The notes: a model not told the origin generated them from the letters alone. Numbered from the stretch's first letter, positions 25,896 to 51,753 are shown. The stretch is 55,976 nucleotides of DNA from Candidatus Cerribacteria bacterium 'Amazon FNV 2010 28 9' (GCA_003176165.1 PSRQ01000023.1:1-55976), one strand, 5' to 3'. Translations and numbers: made by a program.

Positions 25896-26200
25896 ACTGC
25901 TATTATAGCCTATTTGTGTGGCTTGTTCTTGCGTTTGTCATTCCCTACAGGTGGGAATTGCTCCCTCTCTGTCATCTCCACGAGCCAGAGGCTCTCTGAG
26001 CCGTGGACCTGAAAGCCGAATCCAACGCTATCCTCATCCGGGATCTTTTGCAAGAGAAACTTAAAGATTTCATCCGTACTTGGATACATCTCTCTTTTGC
26101 CGGTTCAATGTTATACGTTGAACCGAAACAGTTTCGGCAAATGTAGAAGAAGCGTTTATACTTCATGCCTTTTTACAATAACCCCATCATTCTACCGTTA

Positions 26201-26251
26201 AAGGATCCCGGCTACTTGACTGCACCGAAGGCGCGTCACGGCCGGGATGAC
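26201..26251 (+). repeat. Family-1 repeat, right-hand (A) hairpin module; possibly the end of a longer divergent copy starting at 25971
   Basis: aaggatcccggctacttgactgcaccgaaggcgcgtcacggccgggatgac is near-identical to 33416-33465. 25971-26050 begins gtcatctcc and ends catccgggatctttt, like the B module. Confidence 0.7.
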
Positions 26252-26307
26252 GAGAGAGAGGATAAGGAAAGAAAAACGGAAGATTTTTATCAGGGATGAC
26301 AACACTC

Positions 26308-26864: not shown

Positions 26865-27818
26865 CTATTTATTACTGACCATGATAAGACCATTTTTTGT
26901 GCTTGGGTCATAGTCAACATAGGCGATTTGAGTTCCATCGGAGGACCAGCTAATCCACTCTACAACAGCATTTCCACCTTCATGAACGTGAATGTCTTTT
27001 AACCATTGGGTGGTTTTTGAACTGACATCATATTCTTTCAAGGAATCACCGTCCAGAAAAATCATTGTTTTTCCGTTCGGAGAAAGTGAACCAGTGGGAA
27101 CATCATTTCCTCCACGAATGGATGTCCCATCTGTTTTCATGATTGAACCGCCCCTAAAAATAACCCCTTGCGCCGTCCATGTTTGAATGTCTCCAAAACT
27201 GTAGTTCGAAAGCATTGTGCTTTTGCCTGTTTCAGTATCTAAGACACAAGTATGGACGAAGGTGCTATCATCTTTGGCTCCACATAAATAAGCAATTTGT
27301 TTCCCGTTAGGAGACCAAGCAAGTGTTGGATATGGAAATAATCCATCATCCGCATAACCTATGACCTCTAGTGGGAAATTTCCAGAATCGGTCGTGTCGA
27401 GGAAGCACGAGTGTTCAAGTGTGGTAATTACGACAATGCATACCCCGTACGATTCCTTGCTTCCATATCCGGGTGCATATGCAATCCTTGTTCCGTCTGG
27501 AGCCCATTTTGGACTTGTCCCTAGAACGATTTTATTGGGAACAGAATTACCATTTGAATCAGTTATGAAGATATTGTCATTCATAACATAAGCAATTCTA
27601 TTGTCCAAAGGAGACCAATCTGGTTGGCCGATTGAATCCCACTGAGAAGTTGTGGTAGCCACAGTATGAGTGGGGTAAAAGATGTTTCCCAAGGTGTATT
27701 TAGCCAAGTTAAACATCCAGAAACACAGTGCCAGTACAATGATTGACGGGATTAGTAATACTATTCCACATCCTGGTCCACTTTCAAGTGGGACGAGCAC
27801 AATCGCAAACCTACGCAT
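26865..27818 (-). CDS. Membrane-anchored TolB-like (PD40/WD40-like) beta-propeller protein
   Basis: N-terminal TM, then repeated PD40-type motifs SPKWAPDGTRIAY, AWSPNGKQIAYL, SLSPNGKTMIF, WSSDGTQIAYV. Start set to the ATG at 27818; the track uses a TTG at 27854. Confidence 0.8.
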   Translation of the reverse strand: MRRFAIVLVPLESGPGCGIVLLIPSIIVLALCFWMFNLAKYTLGNIFYPTHTVATTTSQWDSIGQPDWSPLDNRIAYVMNDNIFITDSNGNSVPNKIVLGTSPKWAPDGTRIAYAPGYGSKESYGVCIVVITTLEHSCFLDTTDSGNFPLEVIGYADDGLFPYPTLAWSPNGKQIAYLCGAKDDSTFVHTCVLDTETGKSTMLSNYSFGDIQTWTAQGVIFRGGSIMKTDGTSIRGGNDVPTGSLSPNGKTMIFLDGDSLKEYDVSSKTTQWLKDIHVHEGGNAVVEWISWSSDGTQIAYVDYDPSTKNGLIMVSNK

Positions 27819-28030
27819 TTGGTATATCCATCCTTTTTCTCTGGGTAGAGACAAGTTGTCTCATAAAATCCCAGATAGGGAAATGCACACTGTGAGCACT
27901 TTCCAATCTGGGAAACCAGAAAAAATCTTCTTCACATGTTATAGAGCAAAATACTCTCATCCGTTGGATGAACAGTGAGTATTGTGGTGTGAATTATAGC
28001 ACGAATTATGGGGTGGCCCTCTCTTACCTC

Positions 28031-28175
28031 GTCATCCCTGACGCGACGCGAAGCCGTCGAGTATCAGGGATCTTTAAACAGGTTACGATTGAATTATTTT
28101 GAGCATGTAGTACGAATTGCAGAAAGATCCCGGCTACTTGGCTCCCGCAGATGGCGGGGCCATGGCCAGGATGAC
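28031..28175 (+). repeat. Family-1 composite MITE-like element (B hairpin - spacer - A hairpin), copy 1
   Basis: Starts gtcatccctgacgcg and ends ggccaggatgac, giving terminal inverted repeats GTCATCCC/GGGATGAC. Homologous to 33301-33465 and, inverted, to 35650-35800. Confidence 0.8.
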
Positions 28176-28212
28176 GAGAAAAATTGTAGGGACTTGGAGC
28201 AAGGGAATATCC

Positions 28213-28238
28213 AAAAACCCCCGCTTGAAACGGGGGTT
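28213..28238 (-). terminator. Rho-independent terminator downstream of pilin P2, followed by a second hairpin at about 28257-28277
   Basis: acccccg cttgaaa cgggggt with a T-run on the minus strand. A second stem cctctcc/ggagagg follows. Confidence 0.65.
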
Positions 28239-28320
28239 CTTATTTCTCTTTGTTTTCCTCTCCATTTTTTGGAGAGGAACTCTGGCAGGTTCCCGTACAC
28301 GGGTGCCAGAGAGGTGCGGC

Positions 28321-28698
28321 TTAGTAAGGTTGTGGCAAACTAATACTTGAGCCGACACGAATACCAAAGAAGGTACTCAAGACTTGTGAGATGGCGAAGG
28401 CTGCTGCGACGATGGCCAAACCAATGATGGCGTTGGTCAATTTTTGACGAGCACTCTCGGTCTTACTCTTGTCACCACCAGCGGTGATCCACTCGACACC
28501 ACCCCAAACGAGGTAGATGAAGACGAGCAAACCAACGATACCAAGGGTAACGGTCAACAATGAGTTAATCAATTTTCCAAGATCACTAATTTTGAAACCA
28601 GCGTTGGATGGGTCAACATTGATGGTTTGTGCGTACGCTGTACTAGCGAGTAAGAGACCACTCACAGCGGTACTTGCTTGTACGATCTTTTTTAACAT
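28321..28698 (-). CDS. VirB2/TrbC-like T4SS pilin paralogue P2 (candidate major pilin, Sec signal peptide)
   Basis: Signal peptide MLKKIVQASTAVSGLLLASTAYAQ. Core LVWGGVEWITAGGDKSKTESARQKLTNAIIGLAIVA. It has its own promoter-like and terminator signals. Confidence 0.85.
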   Translation of the reverse strand: MLKKIVQASTAVSGLLLASTAYAQTINVDPSNAGFKISDLGKLINSLLTVTLGIVGLLVFIYLVWGGVEWITAGGDKSKTESARQKLTNAIIGLAIVAAAFAISQVLSTFFGIRVGSSISLPQPY

Positions 28699-28750
28699 AC
28701 ATTCTCCTCTTTTTTCTTTGGACGATTACGATGTGATGTCCAGAGTATAG

Positions 28751-28778
28751 TATATACCACTCTCATTTACTTTTGCAA
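28751..28778 (-). promoter_or_regulatory. Sigma70-like promoter for pilin P2
   Basis: The minus strand reads TTGCAA - 16 nt - TATATA. AGGAG sits just upstream of the ATG at 28698. Confidence 0.45.
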
Positions 28779-28804
28779 ATTTTTTACATCAATGCAAAGA
28801 ATCA

Positions 28805-29278
28805 TTATTGCAATGAACAAGGAATGAGTCCGGGTGAACAATGGTCGTACGGGGGGCAGATCTTTGCAACTTGATGACCTCCTTTAGCTGTACAATCTGA
28901 AGGTGCTGTGCACCAAGGACTACATTGTGCACTCGAAGAACCACCTCCATTACCACTCAATGTAATATCGGTAATACCAAAGAATTTGAGCAAGATGCCG
29001 TAGAGCGCGAACACTGCTGCAAAGATTGCAAGGCCGATGATAGCTTGTGTGATCATTTCGCGTGCATGTTCTACTTTTCCTTTGTCGCCACCAGCAGTGA
29101 TCCAGTTGAATCCACCGAGTAACAAGTAGAGCAGGACAGCCAGCGCTGCGACGACGAGAATTGCTCCTGCGCCCATCTCAACGAGATGACCCAAATCTGT
29201 TACTTTTGAAATATTGCCAGAAACAGCTTGAGATTGAATATCTAATACATTTTGAGCGATGAGAGTAGATAGAATCAT
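28805..29278 (-). CDS. T4SS pilin paralogue P3 with a Cys-rich C-terminal extension
   Basis: Core LLLGGFNWITAGGDKGKVEHAREMITQAIIGLAIFA. The tail GGGSSSAQCSPWCTAPSDCTAKGGHQVAKICPPYDHCSPGLIPCSLQ has 6 Cys. ATG at 29278 lies 1 nt after the upstream stop. Confidence 0.8.
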   Translation of the reverse strand: MILSTLIAQNVLDIQSQAVSGNISKVTDLGHLVEMGAGAILVVAALAVLLYLLLGGFNWITAGGDKGKVEHAREMITQAIIGLAIFAAVFALYGILLKFFGITDITLSGNGGGSSSAQCSPWCTAPSDCTAKGGHQVAKICPPYDHCSPGLIPCSLQ

Positions 29279-29279
29279 A

Positions 29280-29693
29280 TTAATTAGCACAAGGCTTTCC
29301 TGGTACGCAAGGAGCAGGTGCAGTACCTCCTACTGGTGTAATAGTAACGTTATTTTCGAAAGACGGTTTTAAGAGGGGAATGCCAAGGCGATCACCAATA
29401 AAACCTGTAATAGCTACTGTTCCTACGAGTACAAGCATCCCAATAATCGATTGAGTAATTCTCTCACGAGCCTGTTCGATTTTACCTTTTTCGCCACCGG
29501 CTGTGATCCATTCAAAAGCTCCAATGACAAGCATGATAAGAAGAGCGAGGCCTCCGAGAGTAATGGCAGTCCTCCATACGGTAACAATGATATTTGTGAG
29601 TGCTAGTGCTGGAGCCACTCCACCTTGACCACCAAACGTACCAGTCACCACAGGGTTTGTAATTTCTTCGGATTGTGCAATGAGTGCAAACAT
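29280..29693 (-). CDS. T4SS pilin paralogue P4
   Basis: Core LVIGAFEWITAGGEKGKIEQARERITQSIIGMLVLV. Short C-terminal tail with 2 Cys. Confidence 0.8.
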   Translation of the reverse strand: MFALIAQSEEITNPVVTGTFGGQGGVAPALALTNIIVTVWRTAITLGGLALLIMLVIGAFEWITAGGEKGKIEQARERITQSIIGMLVLVGTVAITGFIGDRLGIPLLKPSFENNVTITPVGGTAPAPCVPGKPCAN

Positions 29694-29697
29694 AAGT

Positions 29698-30087
29698 TTA
29701 TGGTTTTAATGATTGTAATATTCGAGCAGGACTTAAGATGTCAATACCTAGAACACCACCAATGATTCCGGCAATTCCATACGCTGCAATAACGATGATG
29801 AGACCAAGCGCAGCATTCACCATTTGTTGCCTTGCATGCTCAATTTTACCTTTTTCTCCACCTGCAGTAATCCACTCTAGAGCTGCAAAAATGAAGTAAA
29901 TCAAAAACATGAGACCAGCTAGCGTGGTGAGAAAACCTAAGAAAGAAGAGAGGAAATGACTCAATTGATCTCCCGCAGCATTACCAGCACCGACAAGATT
30001 GGTTTCCCCCGCAACTGGAGCAAAGGCAGAAGAGGCGGGTTTTAATTGGCCGAGTGGAATGTTGTTGAGTTGTGCAATCAGTGACAT
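29698..30087 (-). CDS. T4SS pilin paralogue P5
   Basis: Core FIFAALEWITAGGEKGKIEHARQQMVNAALGLIIVI. Confidence 0.8.
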   Translation of the reverse strand: MSLIAQLNNIPLGQLKPASSAFAPVAGETNLVGAGNAAGDQLSHFLSSFLGFLTTLAGLMFLIYFIFAALEWITAGGEKGKIEHARQQMVNAALGLIIVIAAYGIAGIIGGVLGIDILSPARILQSLKP

Positions 30088-30088
30088 A

Positions 30089-30463
30089 CTATGGTCCTAA
30101 TTTTCCGACACCTTGAATGTGTGGGTTTAAGATGAATGTTGCATCTCCAAAGAGCAGGAAACTAACGATCGCTGTAATTGTGAAGGATCCGACGATAATA
30201 ATTAGACCAATTAAGCTGTAGAGAAGTTTATTGTTTGCTTCTTCAGCTGCTTTGGGATTGCCACTTGAACCGAGCCAAGTAAAACCTGCGGAAATGATAT
30301 TAAATGCTCCGAAAAGTCCGGCGACAACTGTAATAACCTTGAGCATGGTATTGATAAAGGGAACAAGTCCTAATCCTGTACCACCACTGAACGCTTGAAG
30401 AGGAGAGGGCTCTGGAAGTTGTCCAAAAATCGAATCAGCGATGAGATGCGGTGGCACAATCAT
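30089..30463 (-). CDS. T4SS pilin paralogue P6 (SSGNPK subtype)
   Basis: Core NIISAGFTWLGSSGNPKAAEEANNKLLYSLIGLIIIV. Confidence 0.75.
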   Translation of the reverse strand: MIVPPHLIADSIFGQLPEPSPLQAFSGGTGLGLVPFINTMLKVITVVAGLFGAFNIISAGFTWLGSSGNPKAAEEANNKLLYSLIGLIIIVGSFTITAIVSFLLFGDATFILNPHIQGVGKLGP

Positions 30464-30472
30464 ACGATTATT

Positions 30473-30826
30473 TTACAACGTTGAGCTAAAAATTGGTACT
30501 CCTGTAATCAGTTCAACCAATCGGACTAACCAGTACGCAACAAAGATAACGACAAAACCAAGAATAGCGCCTGTGATAGCTTGTGTTCCTTTTTCGGTAG
30601 CTTTAGGATTTCCAGCTGAGGAAATGATCATAACTCCACCAAACACAAGATAGAGGAGAAGGATAAAGCCAGCCAGCACAAAAGCGTTTGGGAGGATTAG
30701 CTGAAGAAAATCTTTTACTTGGTTGTATTTCCCCACATCACCTCCAACAGTAGTACCTGTGTTGGGATTTAGAATTAAACTTTTTCCTAAATCAAAGCCC
30801 CCTGAAGACGATTGTGCGAGTAACAT
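30473..30826 (-). CDS. T4SS pilin paralogue P7 (SSGNPK subtype)
   Basis: Core LVFGGVMIISSAGNPKATEKGTQAITGAILGFVVIF. Confidence 0.75.
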   Translation of the reverse strand: MLLAQSSSGGFDLGKSLILNPNTGTTVGGDVGKYNQVKDFLQLILPNAFVLAGFILLLYLVFGGVMIISSAGNPKATEKGTQAITGAILGFVVIFVAYWLVRLVELITGVPIFSSTL

Positions 30827-30856
30827 ATTTTCTATTATTATAATGTTTCTCTAAAA

Positions 30857-32095
30857 TTATTCATTAGGAAAATCAATTTGCCAATCTTCTTGACCAGCTT
30901 CGTTGCCTGTGTCTATTACGACAGAATTTCCTGTTGAATCCCAAATAGCATTCCAAATGTACCATTGACCATTGATTTGTATATTTCTTTGGCCATCTGG
31001 TTGAACAATAGATATGAAGTAAAAAGCATCAATATCTGATCGATACGTTTCGTAAATAATCCACTTTCCACTAGGAGCCCAGACAGCATGGTGACCCGTC
31101 GCTATTGTGCGGACATAATTTCCATTTACGTCTAGAATTATAATGTCATGATCGTGATGTGATGTTGCAATTCCGTAGTCAGAGAGAACAATAAATTTCC
31201 CATCAGGAGACCAAGAAGCAAAACTGTATGGTTTTTCCCAATTATAGCTTTTTAAAACCTTTAAATTAGCTCCATTAATATCCGAAACTATGATCTTACT
31301 TTCTTTAGCATCTTGGTCATATGAAGTTGTAACCAATTTGTTTCCATCAGGGGAAAAAGAAACAAACCCTGAATTTTGGAAGGATCCAACAATTCTGCCT
31401 GAAGGATCTTTAATTATGAGATTCCCATCACCGTCTAATGTAGCAACTTTAGTGGAATCTGAGGATGTTGCAGGGTTGTCCATGTAGTTGGGCCTAGGGT
31501 AGGACGATTTCCCTGAAAGCTTAGTAATCACGGGATTATCAATTTTTACCGGAACTTTAGTATGAATTTCTGTAGGGATTTCGGTTGGAGTAAGAGTATG
31601 TGTTGGTGAGGGTGTACTTGTGGGTACTGCAGCACTCGCTTGTCCGTTTTTGGATTCTGCAATTAGCCCAATACCTACTGCAAGAGCAAGTACAGCCCCA
31701 CCAAAAAGTGCAACAGCCTTGGTATTTATTGGTTGTTGTTTTTGTTCCTCCTCTTGGAGACTAACTGAAATGTTAATAAAATGGGTTGGTCGTCCCTCTA
31801 TCTCTACGCGAATCGTCTCTTCTACTGTTTCTCCTAGTTGGCCTGCAATAGTGGTGTCAACTGTAAAGGAAAAACGAAGAGGGAAGAGTCCATACGCATT
31901 TTTGGGAAGCATCACTTTTGTGGCCCAGGCGGGTTGATCCACCCACCCAAAACTTCCTAACTCTGCCATACTGCTTCCATGTAAATCGAATAAAACGGTT
32001 ACCGTTTCTTTTCTTCCTCTTTGAAAAGGACCAAGCTCTACAAAACGGTTTATTTCATCTGGCTCTTCGTGGTGTCTTTTGTATTCTTTCCCCAT
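30857..32095 (-). CDS. Membrane protein: ~150-aa cytoplasmic domain, TM, Thr/Pro linker, TolB-like beta-propeller
   Basis: PD40-type motifs FSPDGNKLVTT, SWSPDGKFIVLS, VWAPSGKWIIYE. TM is AVALFGGAVLALAVGIGLIA. Start set to the ATG at 32095 so it does not overlap the divergent sigma gene. Confidence 0.75.
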   Translation of the reverse strand: MGKEYKRHHEEPDEINRFVELGPFQRGRKETVTVLFDLHGSSMAELGSFGWVDQPAWATKVMLPKNAYGLFPLRFSFTVDTTIAGQLGETVEETIRVEIEGRPTHFINISVSLQEEEQKQQPINTKAVALFGGAVLALAVGIGLIAESKNGQASAAVPTSTPSPTHTLTPTEIPTEIHTKVPVKIDNPVITKLSGKSSYPRPNYMDNPATSSDSTKVATLDGDGNLIIKDPSGRIVGSFQNSGFVSFSPDGNKLVTTSYDQDAKESKIIVSDINGANLKVLKSYNWEKPYSFASWSPDGKFIVLSDYGIATSHHDHDIIILDVNGNYVRTIATGHHAVWAPSGKWIIYETYRSDIDAFYFISIVQPDGQRNIQINGQWYIWNAIWDSTGNSVVIDTGNEAGQEDWQIDFPNE

Positions 32096-32183
32096 ATATG
32101 ACCTTATATAATAAATCAAGGCGTGATTATAGGTATGTCTCGATGTGAAGTCAAGAGAAGAGAGAAAAGTGTACAATAGGTAC

Positions 32184-32732
32184 ATGTTTGGTACTGATAC
32201 TCCGTCGTTTATCAATGCAATGAAGAAAGGTGAGCAGCGGGCTATCCGAGCATGGTACACCACATATGCTCCCAAGCTTGCTTCTTTTTTTTCATCGCGC
32301 ACTCGTGTGGCGAGTGATGTCGATGAGCTTGTCCATGATACATTTCTTTCGTGCCTTTCCTCACTTCCGCTTTTCCGTGCGGAAAGTGGCTTGTGGTCGT
32401 GGATGATGGGGATTGCGAGACATGAATTGTCGGATTATTACCGCAAGTTGTATGCAAAACGAGTCATCCATGCGTTACCACTTGGAGACACGCTTTTGGA
32501 AGCAGCAGAAAAACAAACATCAGGAAAGCATGAGGATACACTCGCGACACTGGCACGTTTGCCCAAGACAGTGGCAGAGCTTTTGCGCCTCAAGTATATC
32601 GATAAACAACCTGTGGAGCAGATCGCACAAGCGTTGTCGATCGAGCCGCACGCAGTGCAGGGGAGGTTGTACCGGGCGCGAAAAGCATTTAAAAAACTCT
32701 ACGATGAAATAGCAGAAGCAGAAAACACATGA
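32184..32732 (+). CDS. ECF-type sigma-70 family RNA polymerase sigma factor
   Basis: Region 2: DELVHDTFLSCLSSLPLFRAESGLWSWMMGIARHELSDYYRK. Region 4 HTH: LPKTVAELLRLKYIDKQPVEQIAQALSIEPHAVQGRLYRARKAFKKL. Confidence 0.85.
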   Translation: MFGTDTPSFINAMKKGEQRAIRAWYTTYAPKLASFFSSRTRVASDVDELVHDTFLSCLSSLPLFRAESGLWSWMMGIARHELSDYYRKLYAKRVIHALPLGDTLLEAAEKQTSGKHEDTLATLARLPKTVAELLRLKYIDKQPVEQIAQALSIEPHAVQGRLYRARKAFKKLYDEIAEAENT

Positions 32733-32968
32733 AATCACGTGATCCTTTTTTACAAGAACTTGAACTGCGAGCCAAAGAGCAGGCCCGTATTGCGCAGTCT
32801 TCTCGATTACCACAAGTTGTGCGTCCTTTCGCAGCCTTGTTTGGTGAGAGGTCTTGGCAGATGCTCCTGGGCATATCTTTTATACTCGCTGGCGTACTTG
32901 CGACTTGGTCATTTCGCTTTCTGTATATGATGTATGAGAAAGGAGTGTTGCAATGGCTCGTACGGTAG
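32729..32968 (+). CDS. Small single-TM protein, positional candidate anti-sigma factor
   Basis: ATGA overlap with the sigma-gene stop. 79 aa with one TM (MLLGISFILAGVLATWSFRFL). No ZAS motif. Confidence 0.5.
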   Translation: MKSRDPFLQELELRAKEQARIAQSSRLPQVVRPFAALFGERSWQMLLGISFILAGVLATWSFRFLYMMYEKGVLQWLVR

Positions 32969-33291
32969 TCAAGCGTGCAACAGAGGTCGTGGTTCCCGAA
33001 GTGGTGCTCAGCTACCACATCGGGGTAGTGGCAGTGGGGTTACTGCGTCATCCCTATAAAACGGTACAAGATGTTGTGCGTTCCAAAATTCCGGGAATTA
33101 TTATTCTTTTTCCCATATTTGTGTGGATGGTAGCGAGTATTATCCTTCGTGTTTTTGACGATCTTTTCTTTGCATTTATCCCGTTTATTGGTTTCTGGTG
33201 GTTCTTTTTTGTATGGGTGAGTGTGTTTACACTTTTGTGGCAAATTCTTCTTCTGTACCTGTATTTTCGTTTTTCAAGTGTGATGAAGTAA
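32953..33291 (+). CDS. Small polytopic membrane protein
   Basis: 112 aa with 3 hydrophobic helices. Overlaps the preceding ORF by 16 nt, consistent with an operon. Confidence 0.5.
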   Translation: MARTVVKRATEVVVPEVVLSYHIGVVAVGLLRHPYKTVQDVVRSKIPGIIILFPIFVWMVASIILRVFDDLFFAFIPFIGFWWFFFVWVSVFTLLWQILLLYLYFRFSSVMK

Positions 33292-33300
33292 GCTGTTCTC

Positions 33301-33465
33301 GTCATCCCTGACGCGAATGAACATAAGTTTACGAATGTTCTTTTCGAGTATCAGGGATCTTTTAACACGTAACTATACTGTTATTTTTTTTTACTTATTT
33401 TGCACGAATTGCATAAAGATCCCGGCTACTTGACTGCACCGAAGGTGCGTCACGGCCGGGATGAC
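33301..33465 (+). repeat. Family-1 composite MITE-like element, copy 2
   Basis: gtcatccctgacgcg...cgagtatcagggatcttttaac - spacer - aaagatcccggctacttgactgcaccgaaggtgcgtcacggccgggatgac. Confidence 0.8.
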
Positions 33466-33546
33466 AAAACGACAGGACAGATTGTTGGGCGAGTGATTTG
33501 ATATCTTCTTTGCGACTTCACCTGTATCTGTAGAAAAAGGAGGCGT

Positions 33547-33750
33547 ATGGGTGTCGAACAACATGTAGCGCAGAATTGGCGAAATCAGCGTGAACGTTAT
33601 AATTTGTTGGCAAGAAATTGTCTAGGTTGTGGTGAAACAATATTGGCGGGACGGCAAGTATGCTCCAAGTGTTCAACAGCTGAGAGTAAACAAACAACAC
33701 TACCCTTTGAACCAATCCCTATTCCTTTTATTGAAAAGGCAGCTCGATAG
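33547..33750 (+). CDS. Small zinc-ribbon protein (resembles the N-terminal Zn-ribbon of DUF35 proteins)
   Basis: AAGGAGG 6 nt upstream of the ATG. RYNLLARNCLGCGETILAGRQVCSKCS is a CxxC...CxxC ribbon. No OB-fold part follows. Confidence 0.55.
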   Translation: MGVEQHVAQNWRNQRERYNLLARNCLGCGETILAGRQVCSKCSTAESKQTTLPFEPIPIPFIEKAAR

Positions 33751-33761
33751 AAAGGAAATAT

Positions 33762-33932
33762 ATGGCAATACAAGAACAACTCACTGAAGTAGGACAAGAA
33801 TTTGACAAAAAAACATATGAAGAAGTAATGCAGCAGCTACGTTTGCAAGTTATGGCTATGATTGAGCATGTCTCTGTTCATGAACCGATCAGGCCTGAAG
33901 ATCAACCAACTGATGAGAACGAAATCATGTAG
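33762..33932 (+). CDS. Possible 56-aa acidic protein (below the ORF-track cutoff)
   Basis: ATG at 33762 preceded by aaagga. Translates MAIQEQLTEVGQEFDKKTYEEVMQQLRLQVMAMIEHV... and stops 3 nt before the next gene. Confidence 0.3.
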   Translation: MAIQEQLTEVGQEFDKKTYEEVMQQLRLQVMAMIEHVSVHEPIRPEDQPTDENEIM

Positions 33933-33935
33933 CCT

Positions 33936-34760
33936 ATGTCTTCCTCTCTTGTCTTCCTAAAACTGGGTGGTGCGGTGATTACCAACAAAGATATCCCTGA
34001 ATCTGTGCGGGAAGGAGTGTTATCACGGTTGATCGGTGAGATTGCTCGTGCACGCAAAGAAAAAGATATGACGTTGGTACTTGGGAATGGTGCAGGAAGT
34101 TTCGCGCATGTACCGGCAGCGCGGTATAAAACGATGGATGGATTTATCCACCCGGAAAGTCGGATGGGCATGGCGATCACGCAAGACGCTGCGGCACGAT
34201 TAAATCGTATTGTCGTGAACGAGTGCTTGAAGCATGAAATTCCCGCGCTCACACTTGCTCCCTCCAATACTCTGGTTACCTCAAAAAAAGAAATGCACGA
34301 TTGGTGTGGTGCATGTTTGGAAACATATCTAGAGCAGGGAATGGTTCCAGTAACATATGGAGATGTTCTCGCGGATACACAACAAGGTTGCACTATTTGG
34401 TCAACGGACAAAGTATTTGCTTTCTTGGCTCGCCAATGTATGAAAAAGGGAATGACTGTCTCTACCATAATCCATGTGACGGAAGCAGAAGGGGTATGGA
34501 AATCAGGGGTTGGCGATCAGAGGTTGGGGGATAGAAAACCAATTTACCCAATTATTACGTCTGCGATGCAAGAAGAAGTGAAAGCCGCAATGGTTGATAC
34601 CAAAGGATTTGATGTGACTGGTGGCATGTGGCACAAAATTGAAGAGTCTCTCTTGTTGGCAAATGAAGGTATCCAGACACGTATCATTTCTGGATTGGTG
34701 AAAGACAATGTATATAAAGTACTGATGGGTGATGAGAAAATTGGAACGACAATTCGGTGA
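33936..34760 (+). CDS. Isopentenyl phosphate kinase (amino-acid-kinase fold)
   Basis: FLKLGGAVITNK, VLGNGAGSFAHVPA, GDVLAD, FDVTGGMWHKIEE and a C-terminal VYKVLMGDEKIGTTI parallel the archaeal IPK signature blocks (KLGGS.IT.K / GGGSFGH / DVTGGM). Confidence 0.8.
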   Translation: MSSSLVFLKLGGAVITNKDIPESVREGVLSRLIGEIARARKEKDMTLVLGNGAGSFAHVPAARYKTMDGFIHPESRMGMAITQDAAARLNRIVVNECLKHEIPALTLAPSNTLVTSKKEMHDWCGACLETYLEQGMVPVTYGDVLADTQQGCTIWSTDKVFAFLARQCMKKGMTVSTIIHVTEAEGVWKSGVGDQRLGDRKPIYPIITSAMQEEVKAAMVDTKGFDVTGGMWHKIEESLLLANEGIQTRIISGLVKDNVYKVLMGDEKIGTTIR

Positions 34761-34764
34761 CTTT

Positions 34765-34865
34765 GTCATCCCGTACGGCATGGCGAAGCCAGGCGGATAC
34801 GGGATCCAGGCAGAAAGAATATTTAAATTGCTAAGGAGATGGATTCCTGCTTTCGCAGGAATGAC
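34765..34865 (+). repeat. Family-2 composite hairpin repeat, copy 1
   Basis: gtcatcccgtacgg...ggatacgggatccagg - spacer - ggattcctgctttcgcaggaatgac. Its translation (WIPAFAGMT) falsely extends the uppS ORF in the track. Confidence 0.75.
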
Positions 34866-34893
34866 AAGAAAAAAATCATTTATAATACCTCCT

Positions 34894-35616
34894 ATGACTT
34901 CAAGCACAACAATTCCTCATCATGTAGCCATCATCATGGATGGTAATCGCCGGTGGGCGCGCTCCCATGGGTGGCAGGCGATCAAAGGGCATGAGTATGT
35001 CGTGGATCACATCCTTGAGCCGCTCGTGGATCGCTGTATTGAACTTGGAATTGAGTATCTTACGCTCTGGGCATTTAGTACAGAAAATTGGCAGCGGGAT
35101 CGTCTGGAACTGGAAGGAATGATGCAACTTTTTCGTCGTGCCTTTACACACAAAATTGAAGAGCTCAATGCCAAAGGCGTGCGATTTCGCATCATTGGGA
35201 ATATTGATAAGTTCCCCAAAGATATTGCTATTCAAGCAAAAGATTGGGTAGAAAAAAGTGCACACAATACAAAAATCACAGTAAATTTTGCACTTAATTA
35301 TGGTGGCAGGGAAGAAATACTTGGTGCTGTTAATGCGATTCTAAAAGAGAGAGAAGAAGAGAAGAAGAGAGGGAGAGAAAACGATGAATTAGTTGGTTCA
35401 CAGGAGTTTGAATCACATCTTTCAACCGCGGGGATTCCTGATCCGGACCTCATCATTCGTCCCGGCGGACAATTGCGACTTTCTGGCTTTTTACCTTGGC
35501 AATCTGTCTATTCAGAGCTTTACTTTACTGATGTGTTGATGCCAGAGTTTACGGTTGAAGAATTGGATAAAGCGTTGGAAGATTACGCGAACAGGCAACG
35601 AAGGTTTGGAAAATAA
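34894..35616 (+). CDS. uppS: Undecaprenyl (isoprenyl) diphosphate synthase, cis-prenyltransferase
   Basis: HVAIIMDGNRRWA, LTLWAFSTENWQR, ALNYGGREEI, IRPGGQLRLSGFLPWQSVYSELYF. Start moved to the ATG at 34894, downstream of the repeat. Confidence 0.92.
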   Translation: MTSSTTIPHHVAIIMDGNRRWARSHGWQAIKGHEYVVDHILEPLVDRCIELGIEYLTLWAFSTENWQRDRLELEGMMQLFRRAFTHKIEELNAKGVRFRIIGNIDKFPKDIAIQAKDWVEKSAHNTKITVNFALNYGGREEILGAVNAILKEREEEKKRGRENDELVGSQEFESHLSTAGIPDPDLIIRPGGQLRLSGFLPWQSVYSELYFTDVLMPEFTVEELDKALEDYANRQRRFGK

Positions 35617-35649
35617 TCTACTTAGTGGTTTTTCAAGTTTCTTTTTTTA

Positions 35650-35800
35650 GTCATCCCGGCCATGGCTCTGCGACGCAGAAGCCAAGTAGCCGGGATCTTT
35701 TTGGAATTCGCGCTCTACAATTCAATCCTCACTTGTTAAAAGATCCCTGATACTCGGAATGATCCATCGTAAACTCAGGATCATCCGCGTCAGGGATGAC
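35650..35800 (-). repeat. Family-1 composite MITE-like element, copy 3 (inverted orientation)
   Basis: Its reverse complement aligns module-for-module with 33301-33465 and 28031-28175, ending gcgtcagggatgac. Confidence 0.8.
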
Positions 35801-35845: not shown

Positions 35846-36205
35846 CTATCCAACGATACTCACTCCGAGAATGAGCTCGACGATACGCGCGAGCCAGTAG
35901 GCGCAGAAGATAATAAGAAACCCAACCAAAGCAGTGGTGATACGTTGTCTGCCTGCTTCTTGTTGTTTGGGATTGGTGGCTCCGGTGAGCATTTCAAATC
36001 CTCCCCACACAATCATGACAAAGAGAATGAGACCTGCGGCTGTAAACAAGTAGGGCATAAGGGAAGTGATGATGCCACGAGGAGTGACTTGATCGGGAGG
36101 CACGGCGTTTTTATCCGAGAGCGCTTTCCCGCCAGTGCCAAAAATTGCATTGTTCACGTTGGTGAACAAATCTTTGGTGCTGAGTGATGAATCTGCAAGC
36201 AACAT
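35846..36205 (-). CDS. T4SS pilin paralogue P8 (SSGNPK subtype)
   Basis: Core IVWGGFEMLTGATNPKQQEAGRQRITTALVGFLIIF. Confidence 0.75.
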   Translation of the reverse strand: MLLADSSLSTKDLFTNVNNAIFGTGGKALSDKNAVPPDQVTPRGIITSLMPYLFTAAGLILFVMIVWGGFEMLTGATNPKQQEAGRQRITTALVGFLIIFCAYWLARIVELILGVSIVG

Positions 36206-39172: not shown

Positions 39173-39255
39173 ATCATCCCGTTGAAAAACGGGATCCAGG
39201 CAAATAGAATGTTGGAATTGCTGATGAACTGGATTCCTGCTTTCGCAGGAATGAC
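39173..39255 (+). repeat. Family-2 composite hairpin repeat, copy 2
   Basis: atcatcccgttgaaaaacgggatccagg - spacer - ggattcctgctttcgcaggaatgac. Confidence 0.75.
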
Positions 39256-46012: not shown

Positions 46013-46061
46013 GTCATCCCGTACGCTCAAGCGCGAAGCGCGTGAGGGATACGGGATCCAG
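46013..46061 (+). repeat. Family-2 repeat, solo left hairpin
   Basis: gtcatcccgtacgctcaagcgcgaagcgcgtgagggatacgggatccag. Confidence 0.7.
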
Positions 46062-46666: not shown

Positions 46667-46787
46667 GTCATTCCGACCGAAGTGGACGAATCTGTTAAAA
46701 ACCTCTGACATGCAGGTTCTATTTGGCTACAGATCTCTCCACTGTCTGGTCCGCCGATAAGGGGGAACCAGACACGGTCGAGATGAC
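46667..46787 (+). repeat. Family-3 composite hairpin repeat, copy 1; further fragments extend to about 46865
   Basis: gtcattccgaccgaagtggacgaatctg ... agatctctccactgtctggt..accagacacggtcgagatgac. Fragments gtgctcgaaatgac (46800-46813) and atcattccgagg (46844 onward) follow. Confidence 0.75.
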
Positions 46788-46870
46788 AAAATAAAAAACG
46801 TGCTCGAAATGACAGGAAGAAAAGAAGTTACTGACTCGTTTTTATCATTCCGAGGCGGATAGCCAGCAGA

Positions 46871-51622: not shown

Positions 51623-51711
51623 GTCATTTCGAGCGAAGTCGAGAAATCTGTGGTCAGAAGGCAAAAAGATCTCTCCACTGTCTGGTTAAAACCAGACACG
51701 GTCGAGATGAC
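51623..51711 (+). repeat. Family-3 composite hairpin repeat, copy 2
   Basis: gtcatttcgagcgaagtcgagaaatctg ... agatctctccactgtctggttaaaaccagacacggtcgagatgac. Confidence 0.75.
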
Positions 51712-51753
51712 AAAAACATGTTTCTCTAAGCTATATTCTCTATTGCTCTATCT

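Follow-up and report, generated by a model that had tools for sequence, protein, structure and literature searches.

The stretch of DNA analysed here (the window, 55,976 nucleotides) comes from Candidatus Cerribacteria bacterium 'Amazon FNV 2010 28 9' and is contig C47 of a 1.06-Mb genome assembled in 65 contigs (43% G+C, 95% complete). An island of pilin genes within it carries three full copies (145-165 bp) and one half copy of a repeat, here called family 1, which is probably a gene-less doublet of the hairpin units that accompany Ssn nucleases. The first copy (28031-28175, plus strand) is composed of a left module (28031-28072) with the tag GTC, the stem ATCCCTGA/TCAGGGAT and the inner hairpin GACG-cgaagc-CGTC, a 53-bp spacer, and a right module (28126-28175) read on the minus strand from the head GTCATCCTGGCC. 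A canonical bidirectional intrinsic terminator (AACCCCCGCTTGAAACGGGGGTT, 28216-28238) lies between this doublet and the pilin gene 28321-28698 on the minus strand. The second copy (33301-33465, plus strand) begins 9 bp past the stop of an open reading frame (ORF) for a 112-aa membrane protein (32953-33291) and consists of a left module (33301-33359), a spacer and a right module (33418-33465; minus-strand head GTCATCCCGGCC). The third (35650-35800) is inverted, on the minus strand, with a right-type module at 35650-35697 and a left-type module at 35742-35800, and takes up most of the 229 bp that separate uppS (stop at 35616) from the convergent pilin gene on the minus strand (35846-36205). All three were located where the initial annotation had placed them, and the two internal hairpin modules and the stems quoted there are all in the sequence.

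The 33301 copy sits inside a block of plus-strand genes (32145-35616) that does not belong to the element and predates it, as described below. This block encodes an extracytoplasmic function (ECF) sigma factor (32145-32732), two small ORFs, a Zn-ribbon protein (33547-33750), a 56-aa ORF, an isopentenyl-phosphate-kinase-like (IPK) AA_kinase (33936-34760) and UppS (34894-35616).

A right-half copy had also been reported at 26201-26251, and it is indeed present and shares 96% identity with the 33301 copy in its right half; taken as a solitary right-type module it spans 26204-26251 on the minus strand and is 96-98% identical to the right module of that copy. Around it lies a cluster of module remnants (25947-26300, no strand assigned), with a short hairpin GTCATTCCC-tacaggt-GGGAAT at 25947-25968, a degenerate left-type module GTCATCTCC...CCGGGATCTTTTGCAAG at about 25981-26056 and a truncated head ATCAGGGATGAC at 26289-26300 on the minus strand. 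Given the degenerate left-type module, the suggestion of a longer variant starting at 25971 is plausible. No remnant of a nuclease gene was detected in the long variant (25981-26251) or in the cluster as a whole (25947-26300).

Each family-1 element is formed by two related hairpin modules in inverted orientation with their tags outward (HH heterodimer). The order within a module is a [T/C]GTC tag, an 8-bp base stem AT(C/T)CC-NNN, a variable inner hairpin, the closing stem and then a C. The left module reads GTCATCCC-TGA-cgcg-[hairpin]-cgagta-TCA-GGGATCTTT and the right one, in reverse complement, GTCATCCC-GGCC-gtg-[hairpin]-caagta-GCC-GGGATCTTT. The window copies have the termini GTCATCCCTGA...GGCC(G/A)GGATGAC in common, and the initial annotation was right that these ends are shared and inverted; what had been taken for terminal inverted repeats, however, is the tag with the base stem in each of the two inverted hairpin units. 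Between the base-stem arms of family-1 units there are 22-39 nt, which form an asymmetric internal loop and a second hairpin.

The same grammar holds beyond family 1. A strict census with the pattern GTCAT(C/T)CC-stem...stem-GG(G/A)AT gave 87 modules in the genome versus none in a reversed-sequence control, and a census with a relaxed head gave 111 versus 1. All modules have the base stem AT(C/T)CC+NNN / NNN'+GG(A/G)AT, in which NNN are three 'specifier' bases. The GTC is invariant and is preceded by T in 57 and by C in 25 of the 87 modules (C precedes 11 of the 13 family-1 left ends), the seven bases 5' of the tag are mainly pyrimidine (about 70-95% by position), and the palindrome is almost always followed by a C. 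As for the tails, CCA was found in 32 modules (family 2) and CTT in 26, among them every family-1 unit; the C that opens the tail is conserved. Every detected pair (25/25) is a tags-outward heterodimer, with spacers of 32-74 bp. A second family, family 2 (34765-34865 and 39173-39255 in the window), follows the same grammar with other specifier bases and has a plain 4-nt loop in one arm. Loops of 4-5 nt were found in 25 short modules, the family-2 right units, and in no family-1 unit.

An inner-hairpin type (C)CCGCC-loop-GGCGG(G) is nested in many units and also stands free at 26 loci outside them (e.g. C4 754, C5 12971, C3 620), some of these free-standing copies resembling terminators. It may represent a separate mini-hairpin family captured in unit loops.

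The stems of the inner hairpins differ between copies and remain complementary. Their covariation was tested on an alignment of the 13 full copies found in the genome, with a local-hairpin structure and 500 shuffles. Paired cells amounted to 97.2% versus 89.4% in the shuffles, and the covariation score was 0.25 versus 0.10, a value reached by none of the 500. When the partners were slid by 1-3 columns, pairing fell to 27-47%. The base stems are invariant, pairing in helices 1 and 3 reaches 98-99%, and in the right distal helix six of eight pairs show changes on both sides. Thus, the tag, base stem and 3' C are conserved and the inner hairpin is variable yet paired, and covariation as a sign of a selected structure is statistically supported, as are the compensatory changes first noticed on the window copies. 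Applied to the whole element, RNAalifold favours pairing of the two ends with each other; the local hairpins are preferred here because the 3-nt specifiers pair only within a module.

A search of the genome (nhmmer, with a hidden Markov model (HMM) built from the three window copies) revealed 13 full family-1 copies on 10 contigs, in addition to partial ones, so that copies do exist beyond the window. They measure 135-170 bp, all have sharp ends (GTCATCCCTGA...GGCCGGGATGAC), and the flanks of the 13 sites are unrelated. The three window copies are not one another's closest relatives. Left and right units have separate genealogies, with different nearest relatives for each half: the left unit of the 35800 copy is 98% identical to a unit on C64, and its best right-unit match reaches only 80%. 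Around the window copies, nine strict units were counted in 13.4 kb versus 1.1 expected, and the ribosomal-protein operon on C45 holds a second dense cluster. In the latter (C45 2478-12242), nine hairpin units lie between genes of the S10/spc operon, including four identical GTCATCCCGGTAAAGGCTTTAGCCTTGTCCGGGATC copies.

One family-1 locus contains a gene. On contig C23 (1007-1486), a family-1 left unit is followed by an ORF of 100 aa (1099-1401) and a family-1 right unit; the family-1 HMM matches 1007-1087 (model positions 1-85) and 1409-1486 (positions 104-160), with the ORF between them, and the conserved spacer edges are kept (GGGATCTTTCAACGG... and ...TTGCAAAAGATCCCGG). The protein has a GIY-YIG domain (PF01541, E 8.6e-16, residues 7-80 of 100). 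Six such close paralogues (96-101 aa), here called ssn, are encoded in the genome, with conserved Y-x-Y, Y-[IV]-G, RR, EH and EK motifs; the catalytic Tyr, Tyr and Glu of Ssn proteins are present. Each of the six is adjoined by its own unit type; five have a module on both sides with tags outward, and the sixth, on C9, has one downstream, its upstream side running off the contig. A seventh GIY-YIG gene, only distantly related, has no module beside it. Other unit types likewise have gene-less twins; that of the C52 unit, for example, is C63 10999-11097. NCBIfam holds no model for these proteins, and the nearest solved structure is that of the UPF0213 protein 1ywl, only at E 1e-4. Near unit clusters there are also genes for a DUF559 (Vsr-like) endonuclease and for a four-helix-bundle protein of the 23S rRNA intervening-sequence family (C54 38178-38591, C23 2016-2390).

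This arrangement recalls SsnA of Neisseria meningitidis (NMB0047), a single-domain GIY-YIG protein of a family whose genes are flanked by NTS/SRM hairpins (Chenal et al., Nat Commun 2025, PMC11893778). The NTS (CGTCATTCCCGCGMAVGCGGGAATCYRG) encompasses the repeat dRS3. Binding by SsnA is confined to single-stranded DNA and to the tag-first strand of the hairpin; the protein requires three bases before the palindrome (GTC) and a C after it, cuts a few bases 5' of the tag, is inactive on double-stranded DNA and on RNA, and modulates natural transformation (PMC11893778). Both systems have a single-domain GIY-YIG gene of about 100 aa with oriented hairpin repeats on both sides, the repeat grammar [C/T]GTC-AT(T/C)CC...GG(A/G)AT-C with a tail CYRG/CCAG, and tens of gene-less hairpin copies that cluster at particular loci, including pilin genes, with no transposase; three of the short units present here differ from the Neisseria NTS consensus at no more than one position. 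They differ in that the host here belongs to the Patescibacteria (candidate phyla radiation, CPR), a name absent from the text of PMC11893778, and in that six paralogues share this 1-Mb genome, each next to a unit type of its own. As 22-39 nt instead of 0-5 nt separate the stem arms of family-1 units, these are missed by the published SRM pattern. Furthermore, the system described here has regular gene-less heterodimers with conserved spacer edges that match the gene-bearing copy.

The units also resemble the CGTC-tagged super-family of repetitive extragenic palindromes (REPs; Di Nocera et al. 2013, PMC3733652), one family of which, CGTC-1, has been equated with Neisseria dRS3. These REPs have an unpaired CGTC/TGTC tag (or CCTC), a stem of 8-9 bp starting A-T, T-A, a loop of 4-5 nt and a 3-nt tail that is mostly CCA, and they occur mostly as tags-outward dimers with spacers of 20-100 bp and no association with RAYTs, the REP-associated Y1 tyrosine transposases (PMC3733652). 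The likeness, which extends to Rickettsia RPE-4 and RPE-6, lies in the tag, the stem and, for family 2, the CCA tail, the intergenic position near gene ends, the predominance of HH dimers (often heterodimers) with conserved 20-100-bp spacers, and the lack of a RAYT. Family 1, in contrast, has expanded, structured loops and the tail CTT(T), and its loop length makes its units a structural variant of the CGTC REP. In addition, Patescibacteria are not among the five phyla listed in PMC3733652, and a candidate dedicated enzyme inside some dimers, the ssn gene, was not found in that paper.

Taken together, these data suggest, with a probability of about 0.8, that the family-1 elements are gene-less doublets of Ssn hairpin units of the CGTC-REP type that were inserted into an old, conserved gene order. 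The presence of an ssn gene between family-1 ends on C23, with the spacer edges intact, makes family 1 a likely gene-less, MITE-like derivative (MITE, miniature inverted-repeat transposable element), and the 13 gene-less doublets are best read as putative internal-deletion, non-autonomous derivatives of the gene-bearing unit. The C23 paralogue would recognise the family-1 units and nick just outside both ends on opposite strands, which would lead to the copying or exchange of units; as Ssn cuts 5' of the tag and the dimer has its tags outward, one cut would be expected outside each end, on opposite strands. The covariation may serve to keep the hairpin closed in single-stranded DNA.

Several observations weigh against this interpretation. 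The published SRM pattern (HGTCWYN(0-2)YYVSBRHN(0-5)WNVSBRGN(0-2)RNCYNB) gave 10 hits in the genome versus 5 in a reversed control and fits only about seven genuine modules and no family-1 unit; the latter escape it because of their expanded loops and TGA/GGC specifiers. The specifier of the C23 left unit is GGA, versus TGA in most family-1 left units. Membership of the Ssn family is proposed from size, Pfam domain, catalytic motifs and hairpin context, and the link between the C23 nuclease and the family-1 hairpins is one that we infer from sequence. Neither insertion polymorphism nor excision was observed, so current mobility is unproven; as to strain polymorphism, no contigs with the exact proteins are on record, and a metagenome scan gave only relatives of at most 61% identity, none with modules. 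The orientation of the doublets is unbiased with respect to local GC skew (7 concordant, 6 discordant) and to transcription, and gives no independent sign of a single-strand, replication-linked mechanism. Finally, a close ssn homologue is missing from one of the hairpin-rich genomes (G246, 78% complete).

Hairpins and nuclease genes tend to occur together across the Patescibacteria. Of the 401 genomes sampled, 115 contain the short canonical unit GTCATYCC-N10-GGRATC, in as many as 91 copies, versus a total of two hits for the pattern read backwards. Close homologues of the C23 protein were detected in 11 of 12 hairpin-rich versus 1 of 13 hairpin-free genomes (Fisher p = 3e-5), and modules flank about 16-17 of 18 loci with close homologues versus none of 11 loci with distant GIY-YIG genes. 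Distant stand-alone GIY-YIG genes of hairpin-free Patescibacteria (L090, L093, L095-L097) are flanked by duplicated tRNA-like segments, not by CGTC hairpins. Outside this group, a metagenome-assembled genome of the Legionellaceae (G151, CAYPGU01, L001) has 76 copies of the head GCCGGGATGAC (control 0), partly in tandem arrays with a spacing of 18, 24, 30 or 48 bp; its base stem is the same as that of the CPR family-1 right unit despite the different phylum, and a GIY-YIG gene follows one of the GCCGGGATGAC units. Family 1 itself was not found in 40 relatives, and no module was detected in seven orthologous pilin islands or in 21 metagenomic IPK loci; judged from these genomes, family 1 is lineage-specific. 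A literature search found no paper on REPs or Ssn repeats in CPR bacteria.

If the doublets are what we propose, the occurrence, within a single small genome, of 13 gene-less doublets whose ends match those of a gene-bearing unit is the clearest kind of evidence for an autonomous/non-autonomous mobile pair, and one object ties together three literatures, on dRS3/NIME repeats, on CGTC REPs 'without a transposase' and on the Ssn nucleases of 2025. A hairpin system of the Ssn type would be abundant in the ultra-small Patescibacteria, where the published SRM pattern would under-count repeats with expanded loops, and the covarying inner hairpins offer a natural set of variants for testing what an Ssn enzyme reads. 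The system itself is already known; what is unusual here is the expanded, covarying loop outside the SRM pattern and the clean pairing of gene-bearing and gene-less forms.

A bolder proposal, put forward as a speculation with a small chance of being right, is that family 1 represents an 'expanded-loop' class of Ssn units in which the nuclease would read only the tag, base stem and 3' C, the loop would tolerate a covarying hairpin, single-strand breaks made by Ssn would drive unit-by-unit copying or exchange, as the separate genealogies of left and right units would then indicate, and the nine-unit pilin hot spot would mark the island for Ssn-controlled uptake or recombination of single-stranded DNA. 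Were it true, such unit-by-unit copying would be a GIY-YIG-based counterpart of REPIN/RAYT mobility, and the nine units in an island of pilin paralogues of a type IV secretion system (T4SS) would parallel the clustering of NTS at Neisseria pilin genes.

Among the alternatives to Ssn-type doublets, the one that survives best, although we consider it unlikely, is that the elements serve the host primarily as functional signals at the RNA or DNA level (bidirectional terminators, mRNA stabilisers or small RNAs), with the covariation resulting from selection on RNA structure. Seen from outside, each unit forms a strong hairpin with CTTTT or CTTTC behind it, a facing 3' gene end is no more than 38 bp away for 16 of 21 doublets, and RNA roles for REPs have been proposed in the literature. 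However, an Rfam scan of the whole window identified only a tRNA and nothing matching the elements, a consensus terminator scan did not call them, family-2 units lack a T run, and the pilin gene beside the 28031 copy is already served by the canonical terminator at 28216-28238. The doublets occupy unidirectional, convergent and divergent spacers in numbers (15/6/5) close to the background (607/152/137), their orientation relative to transcription is 4 versus 4, relatives lack elements at the same sites, and N. meningitidis SsnA does not bind RNA (PMC11893778). Each module folds about 2 kcal/mol better on the tail-first strand, and as this bias is symmetric between left and right modules, it picks out no single transcript strand. 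Effects at the RNA level, as terminator or stabiliser, are possible as a side effect layered on the explanation by Ssn units.

Very unlikely is the idea, raised in the initial annotation, that the segment with the Zn-ribbon, IPK and uppS genes inverts or transposes by means of the inverted pair of copies at 33301 and 35800. Two inverted copies, 72-86% alike, do flank 33466-35649, and three family-1 copies lie within 8 kb; the pair thus brackets these genes as had been described, but there is no 2.2-kb plus-strand insert bounded by repeats, as the plus-strand block already begins upstream of that copy on the left, at 32145. The arms measure only 68-72 nt and are 78-86% complementary, with their closest relatives on other contigs, and the region is a general hot spot of units (9 versus 1.1 expected), of which C45 has another. 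In seven family-level relatives from seven genera, all without the repeats and with UppS identities of 63-72%, gene order and orientation are identical (7/7): pilin genes on the minus strand, then the sigma factor, small and membrane protein genes to IPK and uppS on the plus strand, a pilin gene and a 385-aa gene on the minus strand, and a 607-aa gene on the plus strand. The convergent spacer between uppS and the pilin gene measures 0, 1, 3, 28 and 33 bp in five of the relatives versus 229 bp here, of which 151 bp are the element. The same order in relatives without repeats and their short, empty spacers imply that the elements were inserted into an ancestral arrangement and did not create it. 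Therefore, the family-1 repeats appear to have neither moved nor flipped the IPK-uppS genes, and the view of a segment movable or invertible by recombination between them is unsupported. Gene blocks bracketed by repeats should accordingly not be annotated as invertible cassettes without a synteny check.

In the orthologous pilin islands of these seven relatives, nothing corresponds to two beta-propeller genes (PD40/WD40-like; 26865-27854 and 30857-32302), which have a 27-nt repeat in common (27293 and 31189) and look like lineage-specific additions to the T4SS/pilin island.

The remaining explanations are weaker still. REPIN-RAYT systems, reportedly described by Bertels and Rainey in 2011, share with the elements described here two inverted REP units that are repeated together with their spacer, and the occurrence of these units on both sides of a single-copy enzyme gene. 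That the doublets are REP pairs of this REPIN/BIME type (BIME, bacterial interspersed mosaic element) mobilised by a RAYT is extremely unlikely: even though the architecture of two inverted hairpin units and a spacer is REPIN-like and 95 of 151 genomes from this order have Y1_Tnp genes, this 95%-complete genome has no PF01797 match and thus no RAYT, the tag is CGTC/TGTC and not GTAG, the units here flank genes for a GIY-YIG nuclease and not for a Y1 HUH transposase, none of 12 Y1_Tnp loci of relatives has a convincing unit (at L016 there is a weak match, without the C that should follow the stem), and the literature states that CGTC REPs have no association with RAYTs (PMC3733652).

A classical MITE, derived by deletion from an insertion sequence (IS) of the DDE type, mobilised through terminal inverted repeats and leaving target-site duplications, is barely credible: the sharp ends, the terminal inverted repeat of 8-12 bp, the size of 135-170 bp and the many dispersed copies would suit it, but target-site duplications are missing at all 13 copies (flank matches did not exceed those of mismatched-flank controls), self-BLAST found no repeat longer than 160 bp and hence no IS partner in the assembly, the halves have different nearest relatives, which fits exchanged units and not one rigid element, and the sole longer relative carries the gene of a GIY-YIG nuclease and not of a transposase. 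The label 'MITE-like' given initially holds in so far as the elements are short and sharp-ended, lie dispersed at 13 unrelated sites, are absent from relatives and have a longer, gene-bearing copy on C23; it fails in that there is neither a target-site duplication nor a partner transposase of the DDE or Y1 type. QMITE2 of Coxiella burnetii (PMC5896051) is comparable as a composite of 150-190 bp around a REP hairpin, mostly in 3' untranslated or intergenic positions, but its GTAG REP, direct repeats of 7-11 nt and IS1111 target do not apply here. An IS110/bridge-RNA recombinase, which targets dRS3 in Neisseria, was considered as mobiliser and rejected, as there is none in the genome.

Besides family 1, the window contains other members of the same superfamily. 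A family-2 doublet (34765-34865, plus strand) lies between the IPK stop at 34760 and the uppS start codon at 34894, and comprises a long module (34765-34806; stem ATCCCGTA/TACGGGAT, tail CCAG) and a short module with a 4-nt loop (34842-34865; GTCATTCCTGCGAAAGCAGGAATC, minus strand). A long uppS ORF that starts at GTG 34729 reads through this doublet (34729-34896), with the Prenyltransf domain beginning at residue 69; the probable uppS start is the ATG at 34894, 29 bp past the doublet, which itself starts 4 bp after the IPK stop. Automatic gene calls may thus stretch uppS across the family-2 repeat. A further doublet of the family-2 type (39173-39255, plus strand) has a decayed left tag (ATC for GTC) and a right short module at 39232-39255 on the minus strand, and a solitary long module of the GTA type (GTCATCCCGTACGCTCAAGCGCGAAGCGCGTGAGGGATACGGGATC) was found at 46013-46058 on the plus strand. 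Finally, a perfect direct repeat of 26 nt (AACCAGACACGGTCGAGATGACAAAA) occurs at 46766-46791 and 51690-51715, 4.9 kb apart; it ends in GATGAC like the head of a unit, without a hairpin.

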